Below, one piece after another: positions 4,920 to 62,330 of a stretch of 64,000 bases of DNA; within the stretch, counting starts at the first letter, position 1; every line of letters begins with the position of its first letter. This DNA is from Psammoneis japonica (taxonomy: Eukaryota), in NCBI GenBank assembly GCA_008632985.1, contig QPGO01000226.1:1-64000 (forward strand), given 5' to 3'. A program made the position numbers and the translations under genes. The notes beneath the pieces are model-generated. The model was not told the DNA's origin and searched no databases. It worked only from the letters and a program-made list of their open reading frames with translations.

Positions 4920-7900
4920 CAGAGGTGCATAAATCGTCTGTTGTCGTTCGCACCCGCGCATTCGCACACTCAGCGCGCGCACGAACGACAAAACGATGAG
5001 GTGGATCACGACGGTACTTCCGGCTGTGACGACGTGCCGTACCTGAGAGAATTTTTATGGGGCGAGAAGCGGTTCGATCGCCAAAATCTGCACACAACAA
5101 CACGACGCATCATCAACACATCATGCAGCTCTCTTTCGAAAGCAGAGCTGTGACACCTCGACTTGCTGCTTCCTTCTCCATCTACAACATCTGCTTCATT
5201 TGTGATGGCAAGCAAAGTGCAGCAGGACTGTTGGTTGTGGAGAAAACATGCAGTTTGGACTTACGACCTCAGTGTTTTTTTCTTTGTTGTTGCCGTCAGG
5301 TGTTTCGTCGTTGGCTTCTCTCAGGATGAATTTTGCCCGGCAATTGTGCGTTCCCGGCATCAAACATCTCCCAAGTTACAACATGTCAAAGGGGTCCGGC
5401 AGCGTCACAACTGCAGGTTGATCGAATCCGAGTGGGTTTGGTTGCATGACTTGTTTGGGTGTCACAAAACGGCGCGCAGTTCTCACAAGCTCGTTTTTTC
5501 CTGTTGTTGCAGTTTGTGGTTTGGTCAAATCAAAGCAGCACTCTCACGGACTCCATTTTCCATTTGTTGCACCATCACCACAGGAAGCATCTGTCAGTTG
5601 ATGGGTCTGAATTGGGTTGGTTTCAATTGTTGTTTGGGCGAAGCAAAATGGCACTCAGTTCTCACGTGCTCGCACTCTCTGCTTTTTACGGTTCATGGCT
5701 TGGATGGCTGCATGTCAAAGAATTGTTGCACTCTCACGGGCTCCATTGTCTGTTTGTTGTGCCATCACCACAGGAAGTGTCTGTCAGTTCATTCAACCCA
5801 AATTGCTTGGGTTGCATCGGTTGTTCTGGTGATTCAAAAAACGGCACGCCTGTCTTGTGAGCTTGCATTCTCTGCTTTTTACAGTTTGTGGCTTGGACAG
5901 CCACATGTTGAAGACACACACTCATGGACTCCATCATCCATTTCTTGTGCCATTGCCACAGGAAGCATCTGTCAGTTGATCTGTTCTGAAGTGGCTTGGT
6001 TGCATCTGTTGTTTGAGTGAAGCAAAATGGTGCGCGAGCCCCGCCGGTTTTGACAGCATGCAGAAGATAAATTCTCACGGACTGTGTTGTTCATTTCTTG
6101 TGCCATTGCCATGGGCATTGTCAATGAACCTGCTCCAGTTGAAGCTGGATGGACTGTTGTGTGTGCTTGCGCGGCAGTGTCAGTGTCTGCGGTTTTCTGT
6201 CCTTTTTGCGGATGAGACAGGACAGCTGTTTGTTGCTTCTTAACAATGCACAGCAATGAACAGCAAGGTGAGATTGAAAGGTGCATTGTTGTTGTTGCTC
6301 TCCTTTGCTGACATCCTCTTTTTTGTTCGCCCGTTTCGCCACTGCCTTCAATCCCTCCCACAATGCAACATCCACGGCTTTTGATGCATGCCTGCTGGTG
6401 TGTTCCTCCCAGAAATCATCAACGACTCGTGACACACGTGCAACAAATGTTTTTTGGACAATGAAGACGAAAAGGCTCTCGATTGTTTCATCGCACTCAC
6501 TGTTGCATGCGTTCTCTGGAATCGACATTGTGCGCCAGCAACGGACGTCAATTTTTCACCTGCGCCCATTCCCAGGCAACACAAGGACAGCACCAGTGGC
6601 TGACTTATGATTTGGGTGTGGACTGGAGTGCAGCAAAAAGATGCTTGTGTTGTCATGGTTAAGGTTTCTGGCTGCGGTTTGGGAATGACATCCCGACAAA
6701 ACAATGGAACGTCACTGGCTCGCTTTCGAACAACGTTTTCTTAGTTTGCGCTGCCGGTTCTTTCAAAGTGCTCTGCAAGATCCAATGGCTCCTTTGTCAA
6801 GTTGACTCATTTCATCATTGGTTTCTCGCACTGTTTGTGTGATCCGGAGTGGGGCTCCTTGCAGGCTCTTCATCTTCTTTGCACCTGGGAAACATTGATG
6901 CGAAGCATGATCGGGGAAAAGCCCGTGACTGTGTTGAGGGCATGTGGATGATGCTCCAACATGATGAGCCTGAAGACTGCATCCTTGCCAGTGAAGAAAC
7001 TCATGCTGTGTGGGAGTTTGTGGAGAAGGCATGCAGATGTTAGTTTAGACTAGAGTGGAGCTGCGCTGCCAAGCCAAAATTCTCAATTCCCAATCCAGAA
7101 TGACACAAACGAACTGCTTCCAGCACTCCCTCATGTCCCGTGAAATCTTTCTCGAAAGCCAGCCTCAACAGTGAGGACAGTTGCGCTTTGCAAGCAGCCC
7201 TGTCCACTTCTCTATTTTTTGTGCTGTTTTGTCCGTAACTTGCCGGCTCTGTCAAACTTGATGCAGCTCCTGAGGCAGTGACAACCCAAGTGTCTACAAA
7301 CAAGCAGCAAAATGGCAAGAGGCGGTCCAGAATGTTTCCATGCAATCCGTCGGTGCGTTCGCTCCATGGCACTTAAGATCCACCTTTTCTACATTCTCCA
7401 TCGTTGACGCGAAACAAAGTCTCAAGCCTCAAACCGGAGGAAAGTGCGTTCAGAATCATGCACAATGCCCATTCTGTGGGCAGTGTCTGCATCCATGGGT
7501 GCAGCAATGTTGCCAAATGCCCCTCCAGCACTGGGCAAAGGCTCTAACTGGACATGCCCTCCATCATCCACACTGAGGCGCATGGACTGCCTTGTTCCCA
7601 TCCTCTCCATCAATTTGAGGTAAAAATGATGCCTTGCAATGACCATTTCACCTTTTCCTTTGAACCCTCCCCAATCAGATGAACAAATGATGCTCTCAAC
7701 ACAACAGCAGATTTCTTTGTCCCATCTGGAACGCGACAACAACCCAACAACGGATGCGGCATTTGTGTGTCAATGCAGCACTTGGCAATGTCGGCAAAGT
7801 GCTTTTTGCATTCGATCCAATTGCATTGGCTCGGATCATGTGCCAGCAACTGTGACCTTGGAACATTGTACGGAGCATCTGATGTCAGTGTAAGTGATTG

Positions 7901-8139
7901 CGTTGTCGGGCATGGCAGAATGTGGACCCAAACTTGTCGTTTGGCACGCGTTGCGTCGCGGCGAATTTGCAAAAATTTGGAACTTTGCCCCATAAAAATT
8001 CTCTCACGTACAGCACGTCGTCACAGACGCTTTCGTAGCCCACCTGCGTCCGTGAGCCACCTCATCGGTTTGTCGTTCGCGCGTTGATTGCGCGCAAGGA
8101 AGCACACGCGCGGACGACAAGACGATTTATGCACCTCTG
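4920..8139. mobile_element. Decayed TIR DNA transposon (hAT-like termini); no recognisable transposase
   Basis: TIR CAGAGGTGCATAAATCGTC at 4920 and its reverse complement ending at 8139. Imperfect inverted similarity continues ~150 bp inward. Flanks ACCTACCC / CCGTACCC could be a degenerate 8-bp TSD. Confidence 0.75.
5460..6060. repeat. Degenerate ~190-bp tandem repeat, about 3 copies
   Basis: CAGGAAG(CA/TG)TCTGTCAGTT recurs at 5581, 5771 and 5959; AAAA(C/T)GG motif recurs near 5467, 5646, 5837 and 6024. Confidence 0.75.
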
Positions 8140-8220
8140 CCGTACCCACGAAGATCGCGTTTCGGGCTTCGGGCAAATTGGTCCCAGTCCATGATACGAC
8201 GCCTCCTACCTCTCCCTCGC

Positions 8221-8330
8221 TCTCTCTCTGGTAGAGAGAGTACGGTACATGTAGGCCCTACTCTAGCTAGAGTAGGTCGTAGGGCCTGCCAGAGAGGAGA
8301 GAGGAGCGTGGAACAGTACTCTAGCTAGAG
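8221..8330. repeat. Nested palindrome / hairpin cluster
   Basis: Perfect 20-bp palindrome CCTACTCTAGCTAGAGTAGG at 8257-8276; AGGCCCTAC/GTAGGGCCT arms; core TACTCTAGCTAGAG repeated at ~8317-8330. Confidence 0.7.
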
Positions 8331-8513
8331 ACAAGAAAAAAGCTGCCGTTAGGTAGTCGATGATTCGAATCAGCGTTTCTTTCCGCACCTATCATAAAGA
8401 AATGAACAACTTTCAGACCATCGCGGAGTGACAGCATGAAGCTAAGATCAAAGAGGGAGGGTAACTGGGTTGGGCTTGCGGTGAATCATTTTATGTTTAG
8501 TCCTCTGACAATT

Positions 8514-9632
8514 CTACTTAGTCAAAACAGCAAGGTATCCCTCGTTTTCGTTCTCTACCGGCCCTTGTTGCAACTCCAGCCCAAGATCCATATCGATCAA
8601 ATCTTGTTCGGTGGGGAGCCCGCTTTGAACCATGACAGGGTTTGCTTTTTGCTGCCCCAGGACATGTGCGGCGCCTTGTGGGTGGACAATGACAAGTTTC
8701 CCTTGTGGCTTCAACAAGGAGGCGGCTCTCTTTAGCGCTTTTTGTGCGTTTGGTAAATCGTGGAGGGACGAGCAAAAGAGTATTCCGTCGAAAAAGCCCT
8801 TGTCGCTCTCGAATTCATCAATCGGTTGTAAAAAGTCCGCAGAGATAAAGGTCGGACCACGGTGTGTACGTTGAGCATTTCGAATCATTTCTGGAGATAA
8901 GTCAACTCCATAAATCTGTTTGGCTGGCACTCCGGCCTTTGTCAGAGACGGTATGAGAACGCCCGGTCCGCAACCTACATCCAAGCACTTGCCGCTACTC
9001 CCAACCGCATCGGCAATGATGGAGCATGCGTAATCGACCCGTTCTTGTATCTCGGCTGGCATGTTTCCTATTAGAGCACGGGCGGCCTTTGCATCAGCCG
9101 ATGCATCCCAAGTGAGCCTTTGGAATAGGTTGTGCAATAGCTCGTCTGAAAGTTCTGACGGATGTTGCTCATACAGGGTCTGTAGCTGTTCCTTGGCACG
9201 TCTCGCGCCCTCCATATCTTGGGGAGGTAATTTTGTCTGTTGTAAGATTGGTATCTTCGCAATGTATGCATCCCATCGTTTTACTTGCTGGTATAATTGA
9301 GCAGCTATCTGAACATGCTCTGGCAGTTCGCTCATGGCTTTCTGAATACGTTCCGATGTACCACGAGCCACATCACCACCATATTGATCCAACAATTGTT
9401 CCTTTGCGCGCTTGATGTCCTTGGTACTCTTCTTCTTTTTTGTGCCGGAGCTCTTCCCAAAGCCTCCACCTGCACCGCCTCCAAATCCCTGGGCACGCAA
9501 GACAACAAGACGTCGTGTTGATGTCGTCAGAAAACCTGGTGATGTCTGCCAAATCCGTGACGTTAAAAAGCAAAACACACCATTGCTAGAACCGAAGCCC
9601 AGCAAATCTATAAAAAACACAGAGTAACGCAT
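8514..9632 (-). CDS. Class I SAM-dependent methyltransferase with probable organellar presequence
   Basis: CLDVGCGPG motif I, GVDLSPEMI, FDGILFCSSLHD, LLKPQGKL; likely start MRYSVFF at 9632. Confidence 0.85.
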   Translation of the reverse strand: MRYSVFFIDLLGFGSSNGVFCFLTSRIWQTSPGFLTTSTRRLVVLRAQGFGGGAGGGFGKSSGTKKKKSTKDIKRAKEQLLDQYGGDVARGTSERIQKAMSELPEHVQIAAQLYQQVKRWDAYIAKIPILQQTKLPPQDMEGARRAKEQLQTLYEQHPSELSDELLHNLFQRLTWDASADAKAARALIGNMPAEIQERVDYACSIIADAVGSSGKCLDVGCGPGVLIPSLTKAGVPAKQIYGVDLSPEMIRNAQRTHRGPTFISADFLQPIDEFESDKGFFDGILFCSSLHDLPNAQKALKRAASLLKPQGKLVIVHPQGAAHVLGQQKANPVMVQSGLPTEQDLIDMDLGLELQQGPVENENEGYLAVLTK

Positions 9633-9869
9633 GGCGGGTCCGATCTCATGGATGATTTGTACGGTAATGATGAACGATGGACGGTGGAGGGCCGCACCAC
9701 ATTGGCATCGATCGCACATACATAGCATCACACATCATCCACATCCCAATCACACATCGCGCATGCACGCGCTCATAGACGAGAGACGAGAACTACGGTA
9801 ACAAGCAGCAGGCGCATGATGTTGTCGTCTACCGGCACCGGCAGGGGGGGAGGAACGATCGGCACAAAG

Positions 9870-12800
9870 CAGCAGCCACACATCTGTTGAAAGGATGGTG
9901 ATGGCACCCTCAAAGATGAGCAGCTGTCAGAAGCATCTTTTGTCATCGGCACTGCTTTTGTGGACAACCAAGTTCCTGTCCACACTGCCAGCAGCCTGCA
10001 TCTTTGCAAGGTTTGAACAAGAAGAAAGGTCAGTGCCGGAGCACACAAACGCTGCATGCTCACCTCTTTGTGGAAAGTGGTGGCTGAGAGTGCACTCAGC
10101 ACAGACAATGAAACTGAATCCAAGAAATGGCAACATGAGACAATGTGGAAGGCTGACCAATGCCTTGCCAATGAAACAGAAATTGCGGGACTTGACTGAC
10201 TCCCTGTTCAATGTCTGGGGACCTGCAGCCGCCGCCACCTGATGAGTGAGGACCAAAGAGAACATCCCATCTGGTGTTTTGGTTGCACCCACATTTTGCA
10301 AAGACCACTCACATGGCTTTCCTTTGAATCTCTGACAGATTCGTTGGAGGAAAATGTGCACCCGGAAAGGCACAAGTCATGCTTGACAAAAAGCAAGTGA
10401 AACAGTGAGTCCATGCTTTGTGCCTGTCAAGCAGACAAGACCTCAGAAACAGTGCAACATCAACACTCTTTCTCTTGCGTGCATTGCAGGGAGTCCTCTG
10501 GGTGCCAGCAAGAGCCTTGCAGTGTCCAAGGGTCTTGTGGGAAGCACATGCGCTGATGGCTGAACACTGGGCCGCGTGTGGGACCAATCTGCAGAAGAGA
10601 TGTCAATGCTGACTTCATCATTGCATGCATGCAGGTGCTGTTTGCCATCTTTGGTGAAATGCCATTTGAAGATGTGAAAGGAGCATTTGGGAAGTTCAAG
10701 TTCATGACCAGCAGCATTCAGAAGATCACACCACAATTGGTTGTCAGCCTGCATTTTGAAGGCCAAGTCGAATGATGAAGGTTGTGGGGATGCAGTGAAA
10801 TTGTTAACTTGCTTTGAAGTGTCATCAATGCATCTGGGGTTGTAAATTTTCATGGACACCGCATAATTGGGCAACTCAAAAAATGCTGCATGGGAATGTT
10901 GATCGAACATCTCAAAAAGGCTGTTGCAGATTTGGTTCCAACTAAAGGGAGAATTTCCACTGCCTTGGCCTGTGCCTTAAATTGGAAATTCAGCGGAATG
11001 AGAGTGTGATGATTCAGACAATCCAGTTGCAGTCTTCAACCAGTGTCATGCCTGCTGCAGGGTGTGGTTTGCTCCTGTCTGGGTGACCTCTTGTTTTGGC
11101 ATGCCATTGCTGTGACTCTTGTGAGCTGCCAGAGCTGGAATGTTCCAATCACAGCAAGAGGCACAATCATTGTCACTGTGGATGGCAGTTTTCCTGGATG
11201 CCCTGCTGATTTCAAGCATCAGCTCCTCAAGGTGCACTGGAGCATCAGCGTTCAAGAATGGTTGAGTGCTGCACATCCCTGGATTGGTGCAAAGCTTGCA
11301 TTGCTCCACATTCTGTGCAAGAGATCACCACATGACACTAGAAATCAACTGAAAGTCAGCTTTGTAAATGTGAGTGACATGCAATCAGTGGATCTTGTTG
11401 TTCCCAGCTTCTTTGAAGACCACAACATTGACGACATCTTTCTGTCAGTCACAGGAGTGTCCCCACCAGAGAGCACAGTTTAAAAGGTTCAGCCGCATTT
11501 GAGTGAGGGCATGTTGCACCACGTCCAAATGCTTGCAGTCTTCAGTTGGGTCACCATCCTGGGCAGTGGCCTGAGAATGGGAGTGTGATGCACACATGGC
11601 TTTCCAATGACCCAAACCAGGACCTGACTTGACAGAGGCAGATGCAGACTCAGTCCACATTTTAATCTTTCCTTCTAAATCTGTTGCTGTAAGAAAGGAA
11701 GAGACAGACACTGGAGAGAATGATGTTTGGGATGAAGCACAAACCGGGAAGCAGCTTCATTGAGTTGATCCATGTCACAGTCACCATCAAGAATGAGGTC
11801 TGCAGAGATTGCATCGCTGACGCAACCCAAGTCCACCAACAAAGGGGGAACAGCAGGGGAAGGGGGCACCGTGGGCCTGTCCAAAGTGTTTTTGATTGCA
11901 AAGTTGAAGAGCAGTGGTGACATCAATGGGAGCATTGATGGCAACCCATTCGTCACACTCTTTGGGGTTCACGGAGGGGTTGCAGGGCACCTGAATGCTG
12001 TTTGTCCCCATGTCACAATCTGCCTGGCAAAACTTGATCTTGCGGAAGAACTTCTTGATTTCTTTGGCTTTTCATGTGTTGTGCAAGAAAGACAGTGGCT
12101 TTCCTCCTGGAAGCCTTTGCACCTTCCAGTTCCAAGGCTGCAACATTCTCTGCCATCTCCCATTCTCCATGTGCAACACCAGCTGCTGCCACCTTCTGGC
12201 ATTCAGACTGGGCCACGCAAAGGGCTGCCTGACATTCCTCAAAGGTCTCAGGAATGATGAATGAGCCCTCAATCTCATTCCAAATGTTTCTGACATGGCT
12301 GACATGGTTGATGTGAGTGTGCATCATGGATGTGACTCTGCTCAAGATGTGAACTCTGTGTTGAAGCTGAGCAAGTTTGATGGGCCATTCTGGTTTTCAT
12401 GGTGTGTGCTTGACATTTCTTTGCTGCAGCCAGAGAAAATTGTAAAAGGTCTCTGTCTGGTCTCTCAGCCAACTTGTGATCAGGTGTGTCGAGTTCAAGA
12501 AGTGCTCTTGATCTGGACAGAATGTCCCGGCTTGCAAGCATGGGACCAATGGCATCGAGGTGCGTCATCACCTGAGGTTTTGAGGAAGACAGCATGTCTT
12601 GATTGCTGGCTTTCGGGTGATCAACAGTTGGGTTTCCAAACAGAGCCAATGTGTCAAAATCCACATGGCAAGCATGGTGATCAGAAGTGGCATGACACCC
12701 AAATGCCTTGTAACCTCCAAAATGAGCAGTGGCAAGGGCACCTGGGGTGGCAAGAATGCAGTCTAATTGCTTTGAATTTCAAGTGCATGTTGAAAGTTCT

Positions 12801-15947: not shown

Positions 15948-18900
15948 GAGAATGATCATCACCACGTGTGTCTGCCCCTGACCGGGGACAGACCACTCCA
16001 TCCAAATTTGTTGGGTCCCCGCAAAATGGCAACGACAATGCCGATTCGTCTAAAACAAGTGACATCCTCTCACAAAGAGGCAAACCACAAAACCCAAATT
16101 AGACTGCCAGCCGAGCTGGCTTGGGAGGCCGGAGCACGTGGACGCAAGTCACAAGTGCCCGGCCCTGGTGTCAGGACCCCACCAAAAGATGCAAGAACAC
16201 AGTTTCCAATGCTGCTCTCCCATGACCATTTTCGTAAGTAGATCTGCCAAGTTCATTTCTGCACCCTCCTTTCCAACACAAATGACACCCGCTGCAACTG
16301 CCTCTCACACCACATGACAGTTGATGGCATTGTGCTTCTTGTGCAAAACCGATTCAGGAACACTCACATTCTTCACAACACCACGATTGTCACAAAAGAC
16401 ACTTGCTGGTCCTTTGAGTGGTGCTCCAAACATCCGCAACTTGTGTTGTAGAGCAACAATCAATTCCTTGCAAATCCGCATTGCGACCGACTCACTCCCA
16501 AACGTCGCTGACTCGACTGTGTTCTGCTGCTTGCTGAACCACATGATTGGTGCATTGTTGACAAATGTCAAGATTCCACTGTGAGACCTGTGAGTTACAA
16601 CATTGCCTGCATGGTCAGCATCAACAAAGGCACAGATGCTTGCCAGGTTGCCACAAGGCTTTGGTGCTTGCGGTGGCAGTTCCTCTTCAACGTCCCCATA
16701 AAACTCAGTCCAATCAGCACTCAAATTGAAAATGGACTCATCAATCACTGGCTCCTTTGGATCGAACCCAATGCGTCCGACATTCTGATGCTTCTTCACA
16801 TGCGCAAACACATGATGCAATGCTTCAAGGTGCCCCTTCCTTGGATTGGCTTGATGCTGGGACAGAATTGAGACTTCATGCAAGATGTCAATGTGGCCCA
16901 ACTCGATTGCCCAGTGGCAAATTCCCATCAACTGCAAGTGCCTGTCCATTAAATCCAGGCCCACCTTGTCAGTTACATCCAGCTCTGGTTTGCACCTCGG
17001 GGGCAAAGGATCCTTCACGCCATTCTTCAAAACTTCTCCATTCCCGTCCTCATCCAAGAGACCTTCTACGGTCTTGATCGCCATCTTGACGTGTGCTCTT
17101 GGGGAGCTCGCCCAAATTGTGCAACCATCCTTGGTTTGGACCTTTTCAACATTAGCTCCAAGGTGGACCTCTGGTTCTCCTTCACTGCCAGGCTTCACGG
17201 TAAAGTGCTCACCTGTGGCAGCAACAACAGACTTTCCCTGATGGGAGATGATTGGAATGTCGTTGACACAAACCAAAAGCATCTCACAATGCTTGTGCCC
17301 ATCCTCTTGGGTTGCTGCACACAGATGAACGCCAGGGTCCACTCTCATTGATTCAAAGCCCAAGTTGTGTAAGACCGATGCCAGTGCGGACCTCCAAGAG
17401 CATCCCGAGCTCTTCAGACCGCACAATGCCTGAGTGACATCAAGCACCTTTCCTTGGCATTTGCCACACTCCTTGCCACCTTCAAACCATGTCTTCTCTG
17501 CACACGGTGCATTCAAGTGCGCATTCTCCAGATCCATTGCCATGATGTCGACTCCATTCAAAGCTGCCAGCAGAAACCCCAGACGTGAGCTGTCTCTAGA
17601 AACGATGCTTGAGCATGTGATCAATGACAGAGCCTCTGTTGTGTGACCTCCTGCCACGAATCTTGCCTTCCTGGTAAAGTCCATCTTGACATCAAATGCC
17701 AGGTGGCACCTGATCTCCTGATGGCCACGCAGAGTTGCACTCTTTCCTTCCCGCACTGCCTGTGGGGTCTCAGCCTCATGCTCGCGCCATGCCACCTTTG
17801 CCATTTCCATCTCCCATGACAAACTGCCATCTTTCCAGCTGACCAGCAGCTTCCAACCCTTGGCAGCAATCCTCTTCTTCTCCTTCCCGTCAGTGGCATG
17901 CATGATTCCATCAGAGATTGGTGCAGCATTGCCCGTCTTGTTGTGATTCTGCATCTCATGCAAGACAGAGCATTGGTTGCCTTCACTGTTGACCTGAGCA
18001 AACACATTCTCAGCAACCACATTGGCCGCACACTTGTCTGTGGTGCCGTCAGTGCACTCCACTTCACACTCAAGAGTGTCAAACAATGGGTTTTGGTGTT
18101 GAGTTCCAATTGGACGCCCATCCTGTCCTCTTGCTCGTTTTGTCATGACACCTTGCCTCTCACCGTCGGTTCCAACATCAAACACAAGTTCCACACCCAA
18201 GCATTGATCTGTCGCTTGTTCGTCATCATCCTCTGGCCATTCATCTGACAACAACATGTCCCCGGCAAGCCCATGACAACTTCTATTGGGTTCCATGCAT
18301 CGCCGGTCAAGAGCATAACTGGTGAGTTCTGCTCCTCCCATTCTGTTGGAGAACACGAGATTTGAAAGATGCAATTGTCCCCTTTGCAGTGAAAGGGATG
18401 AAAGCCTCATCAGCTTCAATGCCAAAACCGTTTCGAGCATTGTAAGGGTTGTCATGTGCAGGCATGTTGTGCGCCCGCAACTGATTAAGGTTCAAGAGTG
18501 AATGTTCCATGCCCGTTCCAAACCAAAGCATCTGATTGCCAACCAGCAGATGTTCGCGAGTCGTTTCTGGATCCGTCCATGCAGTGCAACAATGTGCCAT
18601 GGGAACCTGTTTAATTGGCTCACAAGAGTCTAAAAATGGGTGAACTTCACACACTTTGTTTGTTGGCTCCATGAGTTTCCAATTTGCTCTGGCAAACACG
18701 CATCCACGTGAGCATCACATTCATTCTGAGCAACAAAATTGGGTGTCATCAAATTTGTCATTGGGGTGGAGCTTGTCAATCGAATCACATGTTTTGATGT
18801 CACAGCAATGCACCTCGTTGTTGCCGTTTCATTCAATTGATAAGATGGGTGGGGTTTGGGTGGCAGGAACAAGAACAATGCAGCCAAAACATACAAGCAC

Positions 18901-45731: not shown

Positions 45732-45772
<41 letters not shown>

Positions 45773-48250: not shown

Positions 48251-48894
48251 CGTGGTTATCCGTACCGTACCCAGTAAGGTACAGTACAGCACAGATATAG
48301 TACAGTACTGTAGCATATTATTTGGACAAAATATGCTACAGTATATGCTACAGTATAAATATGATATCCTGATCCAAAACGCCACCACTATTTTTCCACT
48401 CCTTAATTGTTTTTCCGTTGATAGCACTGCGTTAAACATTGCCGGGCATAGGGGCGTATGAAATACATAGGGGAAAATCGATTTGCATGGAATTATTTGA
48501 AGGCTTCTGAATACAACATAAAAAAGGGAGTTCGTCGCAGTCGGGGGCCACGAATCAATCGCCTGCACGCTATTTTTATTATATATATGCTACATACGGT
48601 ATCTCGTAGAATCAGTGCCAGGATTGCCGTAGCCAGAAATAGCATACCGGGCCAATACATCCAAAAAAATCTACCCTCAGTTCTACCCTGTAGAGAGTAG
48701 TACTCATCCTACGGGGAAGAAGACCAAGCCGTAGCCATCAGTATAGAAGCTACGTGCTAGTAATCAACCTACGCAAACCACACGCGAGGAGTTGCGAAGC
48801 CGAAAAAAAACTCCAAGACGAAGCGAGCGACGCTCAAAAAACACCGAAAAACACCGTGCCGTCACCTTGACCATGGCCTTTGAACGCCCGTAGT

Positions 48895-53400: not shown

Positions 53401-53414
53401 CTCAGCACATTCAT

Positions 53415-53657
53415 CGTGGGACCCCACAAATGCGGAGGGACCCGCAACCCGGAAATGTGTAGAGTTCTACGTGAATGCACGGGGACTGTTCACGCAGGTT
53501 TTGCACCAGAGCTGTCTCGCGAACCAGGCGTTTTTTCGGATTTTTGTCGTAGAAACTGTGCCAGTTTTGCGCACGCAGGCTACATGTTTCAGCACCACAT
53601 ACAAAAATTCGCGTAGAGCTCCACAGGAGGGTCCCTCCGCATTTGTGGGGTCTCACG
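53415..53657. mobile_element. MITE with 29-bp TIRs
   Basis: CGTGGGACCCCACAAATGCGGAGGGACCC at 53415-53443 versus reverse complement at 53629-53657, one mismatch. Confidence 0.8.
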
Positions 53658-54027
53658 CACCCCTGTGGTGGGGGAGCTGTGTGTGTGTGCATGGTTGTGC
53701 GCACACGGCTTCACCGTGCGTTGAGTTTTAATGTCAATGTCCACACGCATGTGCACATTCCATGAGCAAAAATTCCTGTTCCACAGCTCCCCTAAAACTC
53801 TAACCACCAAAAACCGAGGGGTCGGAAGCGCACTTTCAGGAGCTCTTTTTCTCCGCACAAAAACACGCGTTTCGTCGACTCGACCATGATGATGCCTCGT
53901 GGTTCTTCCCCATCGCCTTCCCAGGACGCCGATCCCACTGACGCCGTTGCCAACAACACTGACACAACAGGTGATGTCATCACTCCGGTTCTCGTGGGTG
54001 TGATGCGTGCAAAATAAGATGCTACAA

Positions 54028-54540
54028 ACTCACACTGTTGTTTGCACGCTCCACCGCCTCCCACAGATGCTGTCACGAATTCCAACGCCGCACCTGCGTT
54101 TCGGCCCCCTGGCATGCCCAACACTGTTGCTCCTGCCCTCACTGCCGCAGGTGCTGTTGACACTGTCATTGCATTTTGCCAATGACGTCCACAATGAAAT
54201 GCCAATGACTCACACTTCTTTCATTCTCGCCCCACCGCCTCCCACAGACACTGTCACGAATTCCAATGCTGCACCTGCGTTTCGGCCCCCTGGCATGCCC
54301 GACACTGTTGCTCCCACCCTTGCTGCCGCAGGTGCTGTTGATGCTGTCATTGTCTTTTGCCAACAACGTCCACAACGAAATGCTTGTAACTCACACTTCT
54401 TTCATTCTTGCCCCACCGCCTCCCACAGACACTGTCACGAATTCCAACGCCGCACCTGCGTTTCGGCCCCCCAGCATGCCCGACACTGTCAATCCCACCC
54501 TTGCTGCTGCAGTTGCTGTTGATGCTGTCATTGTTTTTGC
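54028..54540 (+). repeat. 180-bp tandem repeat, about 3 copies, encoding a 60-aa Pro/Ala/Thr-rich unit
   Basis: Units start at 54028, 54208 and 54389; peptide THTSFILAPPPPTDTVTNSNAAPAFRPP repeats. Confidence 0.9.
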
Positions 54541-56619
54541 TTTGGAAGGAACACAATGGATGACGGATGACGGCGGACCAGGAAACCCACGCAACCACGG
54601 CCTGCTGATGGACGACACATCAATGGACATGAATGGTGCCTCTTGGTCAGCTCTCGAGTGTAGTCTAATCTTTAGAACATGCAGACACAGCATGCAGCTC
54701 TCTGTAAATTAGAAACCTGATGACAGTTGGATGGCAGGCATGCTTTCACAGTTTTTTAGTTTCAAGTTGGAGAGGTCAGCGAATTGGCATTTGTTTGCAG
54801 GCGACTTGGCAAGGTTTCAAATGGTGCATGTGACTTGGACACTGCTCCATTTTCCAGGACTGGGTCATCATGTGCAATTCCACAAGAGGCCACTCTCGCC
54901 GTTTGAGTTCTGCATGTGATGCACAACATGCTGTTTTTGCATGTTGCTAAAATGGAGGCAGGCAGCAACGTGCTTTTGGCAAATGCTCACTGTGTTTGTC
55001 ACTGTTAGACCTTCAAAACCAGTGCCTTGTCGACAGCCATGCTGCCACTTTGCATGCCGGCACCTTCTCTGCCCGCACTCCATCAGCTGAGTCCTCCTTC
55101 ACATGTTGCTGCGGTTCATCTTGACACTTGTTGTTGGCTCCGATTGGTTCCGCTGGGCTCTGGGTGAGTCTCAATCACCTCCAGACAGACAAGGTTCTGC
55201 TTGGGAATGATCATCCTGAGAAAGGTCATCACCATACCTCCTGTCATAGATGCTCCTCTGCCACGCCCACTGAACCTTGACGTCGGTTTGTTGCTTTTGT
55301 TTTTTGACCTGGTTTCGGAGCTGCACCCCAGACCGTTTGAGAGAAGGCTCATCAGTGCCTTCCATGACACGGCGATGCGAACGAGAATCCAGTTTTTCCG
55401 GGGACGCAATGACAGGAGTGGACCAATCACGGCGCTGTGTTTGTGTTTCAGGCACAGGATCCAGCGAACAGAACCCCAAATCCTCCGGATGGCAAATCGG
55501 CTGTGTTTGGGTAACGACAGCGGGTGCAACGGTGCCGGCCATTGCAGGAGGGACTGCCGCATCAGACATGGCAGGCGGGGACACGTCAGGTGGTGTGGGG
55601 GACGAAGAACGGGAGGTCGTCATGGTCGAGTCGACGAAATGCGTGTTTTTTGTGCGGAGAAAAAGAGCTCCCAAAAGTGCGCTTCCGACCCCTCGGTTTT
55701 TGGTGGTTAGAGTTTTAGGGGAGAATGTGGTTCAGGATTTTTCCTGCCACTATTAGCATTTGTGTACAAATGCATAAATCAATGTGAGGACATTTATATA
55801 AAAATATAATGAATAAGATATAAACTGCCACGTAACCATGACATCACCACATTCTCCCCTACCACAGGGGTGGGTCTCACGATGAACATGCACGCAATCT
55901 ACAGAAAGAGAATAAACAGGCGTCAGACGCCAGTTTCCTAGCGTTTTACCGGTAAAAAAATTATGTAGAAATTGTGTACAATTTTAAAAAAGAGATGAGG
56001 TTGGATCGAAAAATGCGACAGAGACGCACAAAAACGCGACACAACACGACAAGCGACAATGGCGACCATGTGGGGATAAAAACAACATCCACACTAATTT
56101 CAGGCATACTGCAGTAACAACACAAACATGATAAGTGTAGCTGATACAATAATTGGCTCACTGGTGTCTATCTAATAGCTCTAATCGATCATTCGAGATG
56201 ATGCCATTGTCATCAACATCCCGTATTGTTGCTACGCGTAATTCACGTAGAAAATTGCAAAAAAAACCATTGACAACGATGCTCTGAAATCAACCACAAA
56301 CTGCATCCAGAGTCAATATGGGCGCACATCTATACTTATTACTCGCCATAAGACATATCAAATGCATTTCGTCTCACAAAAATTAGTCAATAGCGTCACC
56401 GGCGGCACGCCATTGTCAGCATCGAATGCCGTACAAAAAGCACGGGGACGACGGAAATCGACTTCGTCTGTCGCATTTGTCTGTCTATCGCCCGTTTGTC
56501 TCGTAGAATCTACGAGAAAGTTCCCATACATTTTACGGTCTGTCCATGCTTCATCTGACGCCTGTTTATTCCTGACAACCGTTTATTCTGCGCGTAGCAA
56601 TGATCTGAGAAGCGACAAA

Positions 56620-59600
56620 GTCAGCACGTGCATCACATTTCATTTTTTCACAGACTTGACACTTGGTGAGTTTGTCAAGCTCATGTGCCACTGGGCCACA
56701 TGCCGTTGCACTCTCTTGGAACAAACATTGGCAGTCACAACAGAAGTTCACCCCACATGCCTGCAGAACATCCGTGCCTTCTTCTGCACATCAACAGGTC
56801 CTGGCACACTCAACGCCACATGCAGGGCCAGGCAGACAACCACATGCAGATGTGCATCATGTTAACTTGCCCTCGCACTCACATCTGCCCATTCCCATTC
56901 CACCCAATGACGCGTGCAAGTGTCCCGCCGCATCTTGACTCACCCCACTGCAGCAGTGGGACAGCCACAACCATGGGACAGACTCAACTTTGGGATCGTT
57001 GGAGACCTGGCTTGCAACCAATGCCAAATTGCAGAGTTCCCGAATGCGCTCATGAACTCAGCACCAAATGGCATGCATGCATTGACTGACAACACCATGT
57101 CAGCAGCTGTTGCCACCATGCCCAAAGGGTTGCATCCGGCTGTCACAGCACAGACACCTGATGCTGTCAAGGTCCGCGCACACGCGTGTCCATGCATGTC
57201 CCGTTTGCTTGTGTGAACCTGTTGCTGCAACCGCCATTGGCTCCCAAGCAGGCCTTTTTGGCAATTCACGGAGCGGCCTCTGCAGCCAACCAAGTCAACC
57301 AGTGCCGACCGCTGTTGGACTTCCTGAAGGCAGCAGCAATGGCTGCACAGCAAGATGCCAGTGCCTCTGCCGCATGCAAAATTGGCCTGGTCTGCCCCAA
57401 CCACAGAATGCCTCACTGGTCCAATGCTTTGAGTGCAAAGTGCAGAGGGACCTTCCAAACCAAATCAGACAAGGACAACCAACTGCACAACAGTGGCAGC
57501 CCATCATTGATGCCATTGATGATCTCACCACTGAGCAACACCAACAACACTTGGATGCCCTGGCCAGGCAGCAAGTGGGTGAAAGGGGGAAGACCCCGCA
57601 GCAGCAGTTCTGTGGCACACACGGAGTGCTCAAGCTGATGTGCATCTGCCAAGTGTGCCAAGAACAACAACTGCCACCACTGTGGACATGATGGGCTGCC
57701 ACACCAAAAACCAGATGCACAGCAATGGTCCAAAACACCGTTGACAAACAGCACCAAGCCCAGGGTGTCTACATTGACACACCAGTCACCATCAACCTGA
57801 TCACCAAGCCCACACAGCTCACTTTCGCCGGCCATGAATGAGATGAGCTGTCTCAAAGACTTGGTCCCTTCCTGTTTGGGCTCACCACTCTGCAGCAAGT
57901 GGTCCAAATTAACGAGCACAATGCGCTGCATCAACAAATCCACAGCGGAGATGGCATGCCTTCCTTGGCCAACACCATGGTGTTGGAGGTGCCAGACAAC
58001 ACCAAAGTTGCAACTGCCATGCAAGCCACACAACACTCTTTGGATGGGTTGCGGGTCTTGCTGTCAGCATTGCCAGGGGCCCAGCATCCAACAGTGTGCT
58101 GCCTTGGAGACCTCAGAGGGGACATTGACATCTGCGCCAGTGACCTTGTGGTGCAGATGCTCTGTCACCCCATGCTGCCAGCCAGTTTGCAATGATGCAT
58201 TCAAATCAAACTCCTGCACTGGCTCTGCCAACAGGAACACAGTGATCAACCTGTGCCCTTCACAGCCTGCTCAGTTGTGCACAAGGCACCGCAAAAGGTT
58301 CCATGTGCTGGCACCATTTGACTTGCCCCGCACAGCACACCCCACCTCGTCCACACCAGCGCCAGCACCTGCACTGACTTTAATGCCGGGGGAGGCACCG
58401 GTGCACACAAACACCTCTGGCACACCCAGGGACAACAGCTTGGTGTGCAACCCCCAGTGTGACATGTGCTTTGATGAGCCACACGCTTGACCAAACATCC
58501 AATCATGCAAAGTCAAGCAATGATGTGCACACAACAACATTGCTTTACCTGTTGATGCCCAAGGCAATTTGTGATGCTTGCCCCACCATTTAAAAGGCCA
58601 ATGCAACTCCAATTGTGGCAGCTGGGCAGACCATTGTCTTGGCCACACACAGGAAGAGCAAGACAACCCACACAAATGGGCCAACATGCATTGGACGACC
58701 GAACAGGTCATCGGCAATGGCTCCAGTTCGGGGACTGTGAACCGAGAGCCTCCTGCACCACCACCCCCACAGGCAGAAAGGTTTGGTCAGCAGCAAATGC
58801 CGCCCCATGAAATGACAGCATGGACAGGCAATTGCTGCATCAGCAAACACTGACAATTGGGCAAGCTTGTTGCATGTGATGCCACGATCTTACATCAACA
58901 CAGCCTCAGCCATTTGTTGTGTCTACGTCGTGGCCAAGGTGATCTGGGACAGATGCGTTGCATCAAGAATCACCCGGCATGCCGGACACTTCAACGCTGC
59001 AAGCATCAAGGCATCCCAATCACTGTTGCTGACGCACCCTGGAGTGCTGAGGAACTCGACGCCAGCATTGCAAGGGGTCCACACAAGTCTGCCTGTGAGT
59101 GCATCAACTTTTTATGAGAGGATGTGGCTGACCATGTTGACAAGGGATTTTGGGTGGTCGTCCCATGTGACGAAATCAAAAACCAACCAGGCTTGCATGT
59201 CAGCCCCATTGGTGTGGTGCCGCAACACAGCAGGTGCCCATGCCCTGTTGTTGACTGCACCCACTTTGGCATCAATGACGCCACCCATCCCAGTCAAAGC
59301 CATGCAGTTTGGGCACATGCTAGATTGCCCATTACGGTGCATCCTGTTGGCTGACCCATTGAAAGGATGTGTCTGCTCAACAAAGATTGACATGTCCAAC
59401 GGTTTTTATTGTCCATCTGTCGCGTCAGACCAAGCACCAACTTTGGCTGTGACATTCCCATCGTTGCCAGGGGAACCACCCCTGGTGGCAATCCCAGCCA
59501 TGCTGCCATGGGCTGGAAAAATTTGCCACCAGCCTTCTGTGTTGTGACCAAAACCAGTGCCAACCTGGCCAACCAACTGCAGCTGAAAAATTTTCAAGCG

Positions 59601-60190
59601 CCGCCGCACTGCCTGGAACAAGCAGCAAGCAGTCGTTGCCCGCCCTTGTGCATGACGCCACCCAGCTGTCCAACCCCAGCTGTGCCACTGCCAACCACAC
59701 CAGGTCCCAATCTGCATCATCAACGCCACTGACATCTGCATTGCATTGGCACTGCACAAGGGTCACAGCATTCCCGTCTCCATGTGCTGCAAACAATTGT
59801 GACAGCCATCAACAACATCTTTTGACCACTCAACTCCAATGACATGGCACAACATCAAGAACCCATTTCAGTAAAAAAAATTGTGCAAAGGCGACGCAAC
59901 CTGGTCGACACAAAAAGAGGTGTTGGGGTGGCTGATTGACACCCACGCCATGACAATGCGCCTCACCGACCATCACCTTGCATGACTCTGCACTGATCTT
60001 CCACCAGGACTTTCCCCACAAATGCAATTGAGCCACCACTTCCGACTGCCACCGCCTGCTTGGTGAGCTGCGCTCACTGTCAACAGCAATCCCCGGATCA
60101 TGTGGTCTGTTTTCCGAACTCCAAGAACTGCTTTGTCGCACCACACCAGACTCCCGCATGTGTCTCACACTGAGATGCCACCACACTTGC
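56620..60190 (+). mobile_element. Decayed, 3'-truncated DIRS/Ngaro-like retrotransposon (gag + RT)
   Basis: CLPHHLKGQCNSNC...ADH finger at ~58575; RT-region remnants ARGPHKSA, SPIGVVPQ, AMQFG, KIDMSNGFY, PMGWKNLPP, EPISVKK, LGWLIDT, LLGELRSL. No RNase H or tyrosine recombinase seen. Confidence 0.72.
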
Positions 60191-62330
60191 CAATGGCACC
60201 AATGACTTGGCATCTTTAGCACATTCATTTGGGGAATCCTGCTGCTCTGGGTGAGCAACCAGTCATTGCTGCTCTCCTCTGGCACTCCCTCTTCACTCTG
60301 GGTTGCTCTTGCCTTCAGGAATTCATTCCTGGCATTGATCACCATGGTGTGTCAGCTGCTTCCTGGTGCTTGATGTGTGGCAAACAGCTGTTGTTTGCAT
60401 CAAGCAGCGCAATGCTGAGTGTTCTCTTAACCAAGGAGGTGCACTTTTTGACCAAGCTGCGATGGTCTCCAAGTTGTTGACAACTTGTTTGTTGGTCCCA
60501 ACATTTGCAACTTTTGTGACAACATTTTCAGGTGGCTGCACTTTTTTGGACATGCAGCATGTCCAAACTGCCATCAGAGAGACATTCTGAGCTCTGACTT
60601 GGCAGGCATCAGGGGCTGTGGTTTTGGGCCTCAATGCCAACAATGCAAATGGTGATCCAGCAGGAGGCTGCAGCTCAAGGCCCATCACTGTCAGTGTGGA
60701 GGCACTCAAAACCAAGAAGGAGAAGGACCTCAGAAGCAGGTGGCTGACATCAAGGCCGCTGTTCTGGCCTTCTGCCACAAGGTTGCAGGTTCTGACACTG
60801 TTGCCCTGGGTGCTCTTGCACAGGTCATTTCTGATGCTCTTGAAGAATCTGGTGAGGGTGAACATGCTCACAGTGTCTCCAAACTTGTTGCTTTGACTGT
60901 CAACAGCAGGAAGACAATGAACATCTTTGACCAATTGTTGTTCTTCATCCAGTTTGTGTGAGCAAGGCTTTCACCAAGGGCGTTGTCATTTCAAGTTGTC
61001 CGAACAGACCTCCAAATGCTTCAGCATCTGCCTGTCTGTCCAAAATGTCCAATGTTCTAACTTTTTGACTCCATGCATGGATGGTTTGGAGCATTCCCAG
61101 ATTGTTGCAGAAAGGCAGGAGATCTCTGTGCAATCTGTTGACATGGACTCCAAGACCACCACAGCAGAGTCTGCCAAGAAAAATCTGCCTTGTGTGCTCA
61201 GGGTCATGCCAAGGATTCTTTGGACATTGTTTTGGCATTGAGCAACTTTTTCTGTCTTGCAGTCAACACTTTTGTAAGAATTTTGATCAGATGGCTGTTT
61301 GGCAGTTGTGCTTGTTCATTGCCACAATGCCGCTTTTTTGGTGACAGCAGCAAGCAGTGGGTCACAAGCAATGAGAGCACTCATGAGATGGTTGCAAACA
61401 TGCTCAACAACATTCAAACCATCATCAGCACTTGCTTCCAGCTGGGAAATGTCCCTTGCTGGCAGGAGGCCATCCGCAACTCTCAAAACGCATTGGCACT
61501 TGGGCCCTTGATGTCTCTGATCGCCTGTGAACCAATCCATCAAGACTTGGAAACCAGTGTTGGCTGCAGTTCTCCTTGAACATTTGGAAGCAAGTGTGTG
61601 CTTTTTCAGCTCAAAAGAAGTCAGTTCCACCTTGTCTTCATCCAAGCACTCCTCTGATGCATCCTCGGCTGCTGCTGCGGCAGTGTCTTCATTGGATGTC
61701 AAGCTGTGCAAGAAGATGGGCATGCTTGTCATCTCTGAAATCCTCCTCAGCCACCAGTTGTCCTGGTTGTGGCTGAGAATGGCACTGGCTCCACTGCAAC
61801 AGAGTGTTTGTGCTCTAATTTCATGTTCCCCCTCGTGGCTTCCAATGTGCTTGCGCCAGGTGCAAGAAGCCACACATCACCAAAGTTGTTGAAATGTGTG
61901 TGTGTGCCAACAGCAAAATAATGAGGTCAAAAGCAAGTGGAAGTGATGGCAAAACATGAGCAAGAGGGCCTTGGCAACTCTCTCTTGCGTCTCCAACGAA
62001 TGTGGCGCTGGCTCTGTCGTCAAATCCGGTCTCTCGAAAACACAAAGCCCAGAACGCATTTCAAAATGGCAGGTTGTCAAGATTCTTGCAAAAGTGCTCA
62101 AGCAACCCAGGAAGTGACCGAGAGCATCCATGGTGTTGAGACGATTGCCTCAGGGCTCGACGGGATGCCGGAGGGGAGGGGGGTTGCGACAAAAGCCGAA
62201 AGAGCTCTGGAGGTGTGGGTGGTGCAAGCGGGGGTTGCAGCCATTTGTTCTTGTCGATTCATGGGTCACCAGGGGAGGCATTGGCCCCATCCATTTTGGC
62301 CATGAAAGCGGTGCAATGGTTGCGCAGGGC
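60190..62330 (-). mobile_element. Unclassified decayed coding element abutting the DIRS-like copy
   Basis: TpA-depleted; chain of minus-strand ORF remnants (60323..60934, 61316..61873); no domain recognised. Confidence 0.4.

Follow-up and report, generated by a model that had tools for sequence, protein, structure and literature searches.

A 64-kb stretch of the diatom Psammoneis japonica genome (contig QPGO01000226.1, positions 1 to 64,000; hereafter the window) contains seven islands almost devoid of the dinucleotide TpA (TA) beside genes of ordinary composition. We asked what removed TA from these islands. An earlier note had read them as repeats of every transposable element class, hypermutated from TpA to CpA or TpG in the direction opposite to fungal RIP.

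Composition and extent of the islands

After refining island edges from TA positions, we counted 163 TA in 30.7 kb of islands versus ~1,300 expected from neighbouring DNA in the window. Pooled on the coordinates of the earlier note (30,207 bases), the islands had 165 TA, corresponding to an observed/expected ratio (o/e) of 0.09, with ratios of 0.37 for CG, 1.71 for CA, and 1.74 for TG. Non-island DNA (33,679 bases) had 1,406 TA at an o/e of 0.62, with CG at 1.01 and CA/TG at 1.14. Across 500-bp windows, island o/e spanned 0.00-0.29 for TA, 0.07-0.9 for CpG, and 1.4-2.5 for TG/CA, while genes beside the islands had TA o/e of 0.4-0.9 and CpG of ~1. All seven islands were located where the earlier note had placed them. 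Island GC content was ~0.5, and boundaries were sharp, with TA depletion ending within ~100 bp.

The islands, none of which is assigned a strand, varied in size and content. Island 1 (5060-7990) had 22 TA in 2,931 bp and included a 188-bp tandem array at 5539-6027. Island 2 (9835-22400; 73 TA) was a 12.6-kb composite of a LINE-like remnant, a Copia remnant, and other sequence. There were 4 TA in the 1,116 bp of island 3 (32505-33620) and 2 TA in the 1,691 bp of island 4 (42710-44400), the plus strand of which was purine-rich. Our recount agreed that 42711-44326 holds a single TA, at 43234 within TTAA. Island 5 (46910-48240) had 5 TA in 1,331 bp, and a low-complexity TA-rich stretch adjoining it begins at 48245. 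Island 6 (50400-55700) had 38 TA in 5,301 bp, including a 181-bp tandem array at 54006-54546, and island 7 (56600-62415) had 19 TA in 5,816 bp.

Only the Copia (LTR) and LINE-like (non-LTR) remnants could be identified, so the extension to every element class was overstated. Pfam domains were absent from open frames of at least 90 aa in islands 1, 3, 4, 5, and 7 and in the rest of island 2, and from island 6 with all six frames read through; this search of frames found no DNA transposon or other domain in the remaining islands. The transposon nature of all these stretches, island 6 included, rests on composition and multi-copy depth, the latter examined in sequencing run X1 over 4000-23999.

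The dinucleotides lost and gained were balanced. From outside to inside the islands, TA fell from 42.5 to 5.3 per kb and CG from 57.3 to 24.6 (summed, -69.9), while TG and CA each rose from 70.9 to 107.3 (summed, +72.8). What was lost as TA and CG (~70 per kb) is thus about what was gained as CA and TG (~73 per kb). Other dinucleotides were little altered: AA was 74.4 per kb in islands versus 77.6 outside, AG was 60.9 versus 58.9, AT o/e was 0.90 versus 0.96, and TT/AA was unchanged. The change was strand-symmetric, with equal counts of TG and CA in six of the seven islands. It also depended on context, as the island/outside ratio was 0.27 for TAA, 0.11 for TAG, 0.08 for TAC, and 0.04 for TAT, reaching 0.67 for TTAA.

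Direction of change and its relation to CpG loss

The two retroelement remnants in island 2 revealed which bases had changed. The Copia (Ty1/copia) remnant (16122-20418, minus strand) has gag and RT-RNaseH regions with an RVT_2 match, its protease/integrase part (approximately residues 200-638 of relatives) having been deleted. The start of the open reading frame given previously as 16305..18455 was correct, but the frame stays open to 18491. Five of the six motif changes cited for it (at TYSS, NAYLN, ALYGLK, YVDD, and INYH) depart from the consensus of 25 intact relatives as claimed; at the sixth, their consensus is GFQ rather than GYQ, so that change was not confirmed. We then considered the 412 columns at which 80% or more of 40 intact relatives agree. 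Among 18 conserved Tyr, one was kept, seven had become His, nine Cys, and one Phe, whereas most other conserved residues were ~90% kept. Over 284 conserved columns in residues 232-728 there were 50 changes: 19 of TA type, 13 of CG type, 9 multi-step, 6 transversions, and 3 other transitions. That is, 32 of the 50 were of TA or CG dinucleotide type.

The LINE-like non-LTR remnant (10105-13517, minus strand) comprises an APE endonuclease and RT region aligning to residues 13-1142 of a 1,934-aa relative. It had 486 relatives at E ≤ 0.001, and these carry Exo_endo_phos, RVT_1, RNase_H, and zf-RVT domains. Two of its 13 conserved Tyr were kept, with five now Cys, four His, and two Phe, and only 3 of 18 conserved Arg were kept, with 4 of the 18 now stops. 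Both copies are dead, given the replacement of conserved Tyr by His or Cys and, in Copia, of the catalytic YVDD by CVND. As an unaffected control we used the host DNA polymerase epsilon gene (22917-29440, plus strand; TA o/e 0.5-0.7, CpG ~1), which was spared, with conserved Tyr kept at 12 of 13 sites and conserved Arg at 26 of 27. Two independent remnants and a host-gene control thus establish the direction of mutation as TA>CA/TG. The proposed second, TpA-specific transition process beside CpG decay is supported by these Tyr losses, and its opposition to RIP was borne out, with TA lost and CA/TG gained.

CpG depletion in the islands (o/e 0.37) was accompanied by Arg>Gln/His/Cys/stop changes, which resembles the decay of methylated transposons by 5-methylcytosine deamination. 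LTR elements of another diatom, Phaeodactylum, are CpG-methylated (PMC2806351). Such decay is unable to remove TpA, and here TA loss reached stretches of normal CpG. Among 114 250-bp windows low in TA, 16 had normal CpG, and five windows showed the converse (low CpG, normal TA). One such fringe, at 61988-62415 (no strand assigned), had 0 TA and a CpG o/e of 0.74; comparable TA-free fringes with near-normal CpG occurred at 5060-5500, 7735-7990, 22103-22405, 48041-48240, and 55264-55705. TA loss is therefore separable from CpG loss. This weakens the strict tie to methylated chromatin that had been suggested.

Copies, tandem units and relatives

We compared the islands with other copies of the same sequences. 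Relatives from metagenomes (67 loci) had TA o/e of 0.56-0.87 versus 0.12 for the window copy, although they were retrieved by Tyr-containing peptide patterns and are thereby biased towards unmutated copies. Judging from the normal TA of these relatives, TA poverty does not appear to be the native composition of the family. One relative, L041, was poor in CpG (0.21) with normal TA (0.72). A second hypermutated Copia protein, P0270, was the only one among 120 near-length homologues listed with Tyr loss like that of the window copy, and it had the same His or Cys outcome at 5 of 10 comparable sites.

Run X1 contained 73% of sampled 31-mers from 12000-21999, in contigs with depth of ~40-75. Its related contigs differed from the window by 983 transitions versus 262 transversions, balanced in direction. 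Among the 40 differences listed between run contigs and the window (there were 1,218 further), six island sites were TA in another copy and CA/TG in the window, and one was the reverse. Among these listed differences, another copy of island 1 in run contigs had TA at six sites where the window reads CA/TG.

Outcomes were independent in different copies and repeat units. The tandem units inside islands differed as CA versus TG at six and five columns, with no TA left. The three units at 54006-54546 (plus strand; six such columns), whose CpGs were only partly decayed, record independent and saturating loss of TA later than their duplication.

Candidate processes and known systems

We consider a targeted mutational process very likely. 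The best explanation overall, held with more reserve but still favoured, is that dead transposon-derived islands in the nuclear genome were rewritten by TpA hypermutation plus CpG decay, the former due to an in-place, silencing-linked mutator. On this reading, two separate dinucleotide-specific transition processes have acted. The first turns TA into TG or CA equally often, which amounts to A>G on one strand or the other; it is nearly complete, spares TA where an A follows (TAA; in TTAA, for both strands), and halts within ~100 bp of island edges. The second is the usual CpG>TpG/CpA decay that deamination of 5-methylcytosine produces; it has gone less far and does not coincide throughout with TA loss. 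The TpA process probably acts in place on integrated DNA, as a defence or silencing-linked mutator against foreign or repeated DNA. As its chemistry we tentatively favour enzymatic deamination, at slightly less than even weight: a TadA/ADAT2-like deaminase may turn adenine into inosine in a T-A context.

It is unlikely that mutation instead preceded integration, through A-to-I editing of retroelement dsRNA (ADAR- or ADAT-like) or cDNA and subsequent insertion of the mutated copies. The sole two identifiable elements are both retroelements, as this would predict, but removal of ~90% of TA, to TG and CA alike, would require editing to recur many times on each strand. ADAR also edits adenine following A, yet AA was not depleted; to our knowledge, ADARs are regarded as metazoan enzymes. 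Nor does editing sit well with a contiguous 12.6-kb depleted composite of different elements and other DNA, with TA-free fringes. A-to-I editors commonly prefer U 5' of the edited A, but TpA mutations in the chlorarachniophyte alga Bigelowiella natans arose de novo in single-copy integrated DNA (Mettrop et al. 2026, bioRxiv 10.64898/2026.01.13.699255).

About as improbable is that T is the target, with modification or oxidation of TpA thymine (e.g., TET/JBP-type 5-hydroxymethyl- or 5-formyluracil) causing mispairing with G and T>C on either strand. Because TpA is palindromic, T>C and A>G yield identical patterns and are indistinguishable from sequence alone. In dinoflagellates, 5hmU sits preferentially at TpA/TpC, and A:T>G:C changes are promoted by 5-formyluracil. 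The window offers no evidence of such modification, and the B. natans authors favour adenine deamination, without proof (Mettrop et al. 2026).

Less probable still is one dual-specificity deaminase that would attack, in silenced DNA, both the A of TpA and the C of CpG, CpG loss then not stemming from 5-methylcytosine deamination. The islands that lost TA also lost CpG, with CA/TG as the common product, and ADAT2 of Trypanosoma and amphioxus is reported to deaminate C in DNA (Mettrop et al. 2026). Against this, the depletions are separable in the 16 and five windows described above, the degrees of TA and CpG saturation vary between islands, and L041 is CpG-poor with TA normal.

We regard it as very improbable that no mutation occurred, the families being natively TA-poor or the assembly miscalling modified bases. 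Run X1 is possibly the source data of the assembly and so cannot count as an independent argument against miscalled bases. Nevertheless, the Tyr replacements and CVND mark dead copies, relatives have normal TA, another copy in the run retains TA at six of the sites listed, and P0270 was deposited independently with the same pattern. Moreover, if the reads had TA at its ancestral density of ~1 per 24 bp, almost none of the 31-mers would match, in contrast to the 73% in run contigs. Two further options, either of which would push repeats towards A:T>G:C, are scarcely tenable: heterochromatic repair or translesion synthesis that is error-prone (the earlier note's Pol eta-like WA>WG option), and gene conversion between repeats with a GC bias. 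The first is rejected because AA was untouched, both being contradicted by a dinucleotide table in which AA, AG, AT, and TT stayed near outside values and TpA alone was affected, in strict dependence on context.

Among known systems, RIP in ascomycete fungi likewise introduces transitions at particular dinucleotides to saturation, killing repeated and mobile DNA and distorting dinucleotide ratios while neighbouring genes stay intact. In contrast to the process here, which destroys TpA and makes CpA/TpG, RIP turns CpA/TpG into TpA through C>T changes, with a fall in GC. In animals, ADAR hyper-editing and APOBEC also hypermutate viruses and retroelements through deaminases, leaving transitions in clusters. 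Their substrates are RNA or single-stranded cDNA and their changes are strand-asymmetric, whereas the pattern here was strand-symmetric and restricted to TpA; APOBEC, furthermore, alters C rather than A.

The earlier note knew of no description of such hypermutation, which is outdated. Mutation-accumulation lines of B. natans acquired TpA-only A>G/T>C mutations de novo in integrated viral DNA at ~6e-7 per site per generation, low-TpA genes were enriched in RT and DDE domains, and an ADAT2-like adenine deaminase was proposed as a candidate enzyme (Mettrop et al. 2026). That preprint makes no mention of diatoms, and our literature search found no report of TpA hypermutation in them. Targeted erasure of TpA has thus far been reported only there, in 2026, for an alga unrelated to diatoms. 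The process here would be of the same kind. Both produce TpG and CpA on two strands by A>G/T>C at TpA only, both are restricted to foreign or mobile DNA beside normal host DNA, and both have a long-term footprint of reduced TpA together with raised CpA+TpG in clustered windows. The two differ in host (Rhizaria versus Stramenopila) and in target (giant-virus and virophage insertions versus retrotransposon remnants). Strong CpG decay accompanies TA loss here but is absent from the preprint's main text, which likewise does not mention sparing of TAA/TTAA. De novo events were observed there and a historical footprint alone here, with a Rho of 0.45 in the NCLDV region of B. natans compared to near saturation (o/e 0.09) in the window.

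Composition and context of the TpA-poor islands

The earlier note had delimited seven islands, presumed to derive from transposons, that were nearly free of TpA, and windows of 500 bp bore this out. Within the islands, the observed/expected ratio (o/e) was 0.00-0.29 for TA, 0.07-0.9 for CpG, and 1.4-2.5 for TG/CA at a GC content of about 0.5, and the genes between them had TA o/e of 0.4-0.9 and CpG of about 1. The positions of TA dinucleotides revealed sharp edges, resolved to ~100 bp, that placed islands 1 to 7 at 5060-7990, 9835-22400, 32505-33620, 42710-44400, 46910-48240, 50400-55700, and 56600-62415. The lone TA of 42711-44326 indeed fell at 43234, within TTAA, as had been read by eye. 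When pooled, the islands contained 165 TA in 30,207 bases (o/e 0.09; CG 0.37, CA 1.71, TG 1.74) and the rest of the window 1,406 TA in 33,679 bases (o/e 0.62; CG 1.01, CA/TG 1.14), with the remaining dinucleotides similar inside and outside. Per kb, TA decreased from 42.5 outside to 5.3 in islands and CG from 57.3 to 24.6, a summed loss of 69.9, and TG and CA each increased from 70.9 to 107.3, a summed gain of 72.8. The CA and TG gained thus account in full for the TA and CG that disappeared.

Away from the islands, long reading frames code for common eukaryotic proteins, namely two subtilase pieces, a SAM methyltransferase, DNA polymerase epsilon, an amine oxidase, a prolyl oligopeptidase, and a lipase. 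The named best matches of the Pol epsilon fragment were all from diatoms (Cylindrotheca, Fragilaria, Nitzschia, Cyclotella, Thalassiosira, and Fragilariopsis) at ≤ 64% identity. Taken together, these proteins imply that the window is diatom nuclear DNA. A TA-rich run of GTAC/AGTA-like motifs (48245-48370) abuts TA-free island 5 and underlines its abrupt edge. Island 4 (42710-44400) is purine-rich on the forward strand, unlike the other islands, with a GC skew of +0.35 to +0.40 and an AT skew of -0.35.

TG and CA counts were equal in six of the seven islands, and a search for strand bias across all seven found none, save that island 7 was weakly skewed (-0.08, p=0.003). The extent of loss depended on the bases that follow TA, with island/outside ratios of 0.27 for TAA, 0.11 for TAG, 0.08 for TAC, and 0.04 for TAT. 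Protection was also seen with an A two bases downstream (TACA 0.16 and TAGA 0.23 versus TACT 0.026 and TAGG 0.019), and TTAA, which is protected on both strands, had a ratio of 0.67. Only TA and CG were depleted in islands; AA, AT, TT, and AG were unchanged, with 74.4 AA per kb in islands versus 77.6 outside and 60.9 AG versus 58.9. The constancy of AA and AG excludes a Pol eta-like WA>WG signature, an option raised in the earlier note that predicts A>G at AA as well as TA, and likewise general GC-biased gene conversion. An APOBEC-like TC>TT process was considered and rejected.

TA loss did not need CpG loss. Among 254 windows of 250 bp, 135 were normal for both dinucleotides, 98 were low for both, 16 were low in TA but normal in CpG, and 5 were the reverse. 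Moreover, six edge zones of 200-450 bp (5060-5500, 7735-7990, 22103-22405, 48041-48240, 55264-55705, and 61988-62415) were TA-free with CpG o/e of 0.74-0.99. CpG>TpG/CpA is a second signature in the islands, separable from TA loss, and appears consistent with decay through 5mC deamination given the CpG o/e of 0.37 and changes of Arg to Gln, His, Cys, Trp, or stop. The two depletions can also part in the other direction: relatives of the Copia element in island 2 at three metagenome loci (L041, L066, and L022) had CpG o/e of 0.21-0.58 and normal TA of 0.63-0.73, the most CpG-poor being L041 (CG 0.21, TA 0.72), so CpG decay occurs without TpA loss in other organisms. In the islands, 12% of TA and 43% of CpG survived, and about 11% of other conserved residues changed. 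As a rough estimate, the TpA rate would exceed the CpG rate by a wide margin and background more than 10-fold.

Island content and direction of change

Island 2 is a composite of a LINE-like remnant, an internally deleted Copia element, and DNA without recognized content. Both elements lie on the reverse strand. Colinear tblastn matches to relatives of 1,400-1,900 aa placed the Copia gag at 20418-19218 and pol at 18875-16122, and the region 16122-20418 carries the RVT_2, RNase H, and gag of a Ty1/copia element with protease and integrase deleted. Its frame at 16305-18491 (-) encodes P0001, a polyprotein remnant with RVT_2 (E=3e-10) and 376 long relatives at E ≤ 1e-5. The LINE-like remnant (10105-13517) is colinear with residues 13-1142 of a homologous protein, P0367, and fits the plan of an APE-type non-LTR retrotransposon, with the endonuclease N-terminal to an RVT_1-type reverse transcriptase. 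An ORF within it (10446-10976, -) had 486 relatives at E ≤ 0.001, the long ones bearing APE endonuclease (Exo_endo_phos), RVT_1, RNase_H, and zf-RVT domains, and the window copy itself was below Pfam detection.

To establish the direction of change, we compared the Copia frame with 40 intact relatives at the 412 columns where at least 80% of them agree. Of 18 conserved Tyr columns, 1 was kept, 7 had become His, 9 Cys, and 1 Phe. Conserved Arg was kept at 19 of 35 columns, with changes including Gln (4), His (3), and Cys (1), and most other conserved residues were kept at ~90% of columns. At the codon level, 50 of 284 conserved columns in residues 232-728 had changed: 19 by TA>CA/TG, 13 by CG>TG/CA, 9 through multiple steps, 6 by transversion, and 3 by other transitions. 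The LINE-like remnant kept 2 of 13 conserved Tyr (5 Cys, 4 His, 2 Phe) and 3 of 18 conserved Arg, with stops now at 4 of the 18. Tyr had thus changed to His or Cys at 16/18 conserved columns in Copia and 9/13 in the LINE-like remnant. In the control, host Pol epsilon, the residue was kept at 12 of 13 conserved Tyr columns and at 26 of 27 Arg columns.

The same change in two unrelated elements, with the host gene spared, confirms the TA>CA/TG direction that the earlier note had deduced from six Copia motifs, and the underlying observation is real and strong. Five of those motifs agreed with the consensus of 25 relatives; the sixth is GFQ in relatives rather than the supposed GYQ. A natively TA-poor composition was rejected, as Copia relatives at 67 metagenome loci had TA o/e of 0.56-0.87 (median 0.69) versus 0.12 for the window copy, although these loci were found by patterns containing Tyr and lean to unmutated copies.

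A search for a Copia LTR pair found none, just a near-identical 65-nt direct block common to 15948-16012 and 21005-21069 that flanks the coding region. The block contains two TG-versus-CA double differences and its surroundings do not align. It may be an LTR relic, but null matches scored as high, and we therefore treat it as a lead only. Self-comparison of the window by blastn and in purine/pyrimidine space detected this block and internal tandem arrays but no families shared between islands; related copies were seen instead in contigs from sequencing runs.

Mutation of every transposon class had been claimed, which stood for two retroelement classes, Copia and LINE-like, but was not borne out for the other islands, where no credible domain was found. 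Specifically, Pfam (E ≤ 0.05) had no credible match in 146 island ORFs, out of 153 with at least 90 aa; the other 7 share sequence with the Copia frame at 16308-18245. Six frames read through island 6, in which stops were written as X, gave none either. This negative is weak because Pfam also missed the LINE-like reverse transcriptase that phmmer found. ESM Atlas returned only unnamed clusters (0.88) for the ORF at 20041-20757 (-). The 153 open frames, long and overlapping on both strands, follow from the loss of TAA and TAG, which leaves TGA as the only stop.

Island 1 is bracketed by a 150-bp inverted repeat of 75% identity (4920-5063 and 7987-8139) in DNA of normal TA content. A 419-nt contig from the public DNA run X1, ~90% identical to the window, joins 4809 directly to 8778 and skips 3,968 bp, implying a related or allelic locus without island 1 and the inverted repeat.

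Other copies of the depleted sequences

Of the 31-mers sampled from 12000-21999, 73% occurred in run X1. With TA still at its ancestral density, a sequence could have almost no 31-mer in common with the window, and this match is among the grounds on which an assembly artefact was rejected. X1 may be the assembly's own data and its library type is unrecorded, and it thus does not check base calling independently. Against 4000-23999, X1 yielded 1,166 contigs, of which 236 had at least 99% identity and 760 were below 95%; we take the latter to be related copies. Differences from the window were dominated by transitions (A>G 249, G>A 235, C>T 246, T>C 253), with each transversion seen 21-41 times. 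Among 40 differences listed, with 1,218 more existing, another copy had TA where the window has CA/TG at 6813, 6816, 6829, 6833, 6979, and 7057, the reverse case occurred at 10865, where TA stands in the window and CA/TG in the other copy, and window TG opposed CA at 7889/7890. A second run, X2, covered the genes at 100% identity and was without cover over 10003-22008, and a third run, X3, gave no contigs on the window; neither result is evidence of absence. X2 also contained an 834-nt contig at depth 134, related to island 1 (6748-6867), that kept TA where the window has CA/TG. This contig could represent a less mutated, perhaps expressed, member of the island 1 family.

Tandem arrays provided a further comparison among copies. 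Three 181-bp units in island 6 differed as CA versus TG at 6 columns with no TA variant left, and their CpGs were mostly intact, with CG versus TG/CA at 5 columns. Similarly, a 188-bp array in island 1 had CA/TG at 5 columns and no TA variant left. These differences imply that each unit was hit independently after duplication, and to saturation. A tandem array outside the islands kept TA and had about as many transitions as transversions.

Among 120 near-length homologues of the Copia protein listed, all but P0270 and P0251 kept at least 69% of conserved Tyr. P0251 had 3 His among 16 conserved Tyr. P0270, a Copia fragment of 684 aa encoded in a public ENA assembly, had lost 11 of 12 (7 His, 3 Cys, 1 other), and it shared the His or Cys outcome with the window copy at 5 of 10 comparable sites, as independent events in the two copies would give. 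Its sequence suggests that P0270 records this hypermutation in a different copy or a different organism.

Related systems and candidate mechanisms

What the window records is a transition process specific to TpA, symmetric between strands, and dependent on context; it stays within mobile-element islands, saturates, and is independent of CpG loss. In logic, fungal RIP comes closest among classical analogues, but it has the opposite direction, as the earlier note had recognized: RIP makes C>T at CpA/CpN, raising TpA and lowering CpA/TpG and GC, whereas the islands had TpA o/e of 0.09, CpA/TpG of 1.7, and GC of about 0.5. RIP is set off before meiosis by duplicated sequence; the islands had almost no repeats in common, although related copies were present in run contigs. 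ADAR edits A after U or A, disfavors G, and acts on dsRNA in clusters that are strand-specific per molecule. In the islands, AA was not depleted, the pattern was symmetric, and TA loss was near complete, which does not fit such hyper-editing.

A closer counterpart is found in the chlorarachniophyte Bigelowiella natans, as described in the main text of a 2026 preprint (bioRxiv 10.64898/2026.01.13.699255). Of 302 nuclear mutations in its mutation-accumulation lines, 231 lay in two regions, one an integrated giant virus and the other a virophage. These events were nearly all A>G/T>C and all at TpA; they occurred at ~6e-7 per site per generation, and in some lines only. Genome-wide, windows poor in TpA and rich in CpA+TpG cluster in viral regions, low-TpA genes are enriched in RT and DDE domains, and the authors suggest that an ADAT2-like DNA adenine deaminase is responsible. 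The window likewise has A>G/T>C at TpA giving TpG and CpA on both strands, with CpG>TpG/CpA in addition, confined to islands of mobile DNA (content identified for two retroelements only) with host Pol epsilon spared. It differs in presenting only a historical footprint, whereas B. natans presents de novo events. We conclude that what the window shows is of a kind with the TpA hypermutation newly described in B. natans.

The earlier note knew of no description in diatoms, and a full-text literature search, whose coverage lies outside subscription journals, found no report of TpA loss in them; the same kind of mutation is on record for B. natans. Passages from five papers on diatoms or algae (PMC9998398, PMC2806351, 10.1101/2025.10.24.684338, PMC11884799, and PMC6604790) leave TpA loss unmentioned, and the words diatom and stramenopile are absent from the main text of the preprint. 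As far as the searchable literature goes, TpA hypermutation is new for diatoms.

From the contiguous composite island, the TA-free fringes, the strand symmetry, and the precedent of B. natans, we infer that the process would act on integrated DNA. Our favored mechanism would convert adenine at TpA to inosine by a TadA/ADAT2-like enzyme; to our knowledge, U always precedes the target A in the natural substrate of such enzymes. Thymine modification at TpA, yielding T>C, would leave the same footprint as adenine deamination, and we consider it unlikely. Editing of retroelements before integration is possible, but fits poorly with the symmetry, saturation, and unchanged AA count. Returning to adenine deamination, we tentatively propose that diatoms and chlorarachniophytes, and perhaps the wider SAR, share a genome-defence mutator. 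Its target would be chromosomal DNA that is foreign or mobile and silenced, where it would deaminate adenine at TpA on both strands. Its action would be independent of cytosine methylation and obey a flanking-base rule of its own (TAA spared). If so, it would be a natural editor of adenine in double-stranded DNA, the mirror image of fungal RIP.

Diatoms, some of which are amenable to genetics, are a major group of primary producers in the sea. Were the footprint that of an active system, they would have a RIP-like defence of opposite chemistry, extending to stramenopiles a phenomenon known from a single preprint, on a rhizarian alga, and suggesting an old or recurrent eukaryotic defence. It would also account for the fast divergence of diatom transposon remnants and for copies unmatched at the DNA level, with bearing on repeat annotation and insertion dating. 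By raising GC and removing TAA/TAG stops in dead elements, the process would create long spurious open frames that mislead gene prediction. A natural A:T to G:C editor of chromosomal DNA with a defined context would further be of interest for base editing. Because the signature is simple (TpA o/e below ~0.25 and CpA/TpG above ~1.5), any genome can be screened for it.

The window has several other repetitive features. An assembly gap of 113 N (38586-38698) is followed by a 23-bp tandem repeat of 5.3 copies (38763-38887), and an (AG)18 microsatellite lies at 45734-45769. Outside the islands, 63240-63990 contains several direct repeats of 100-220 bp with 83-96% identity in purine/pyrimidine space.
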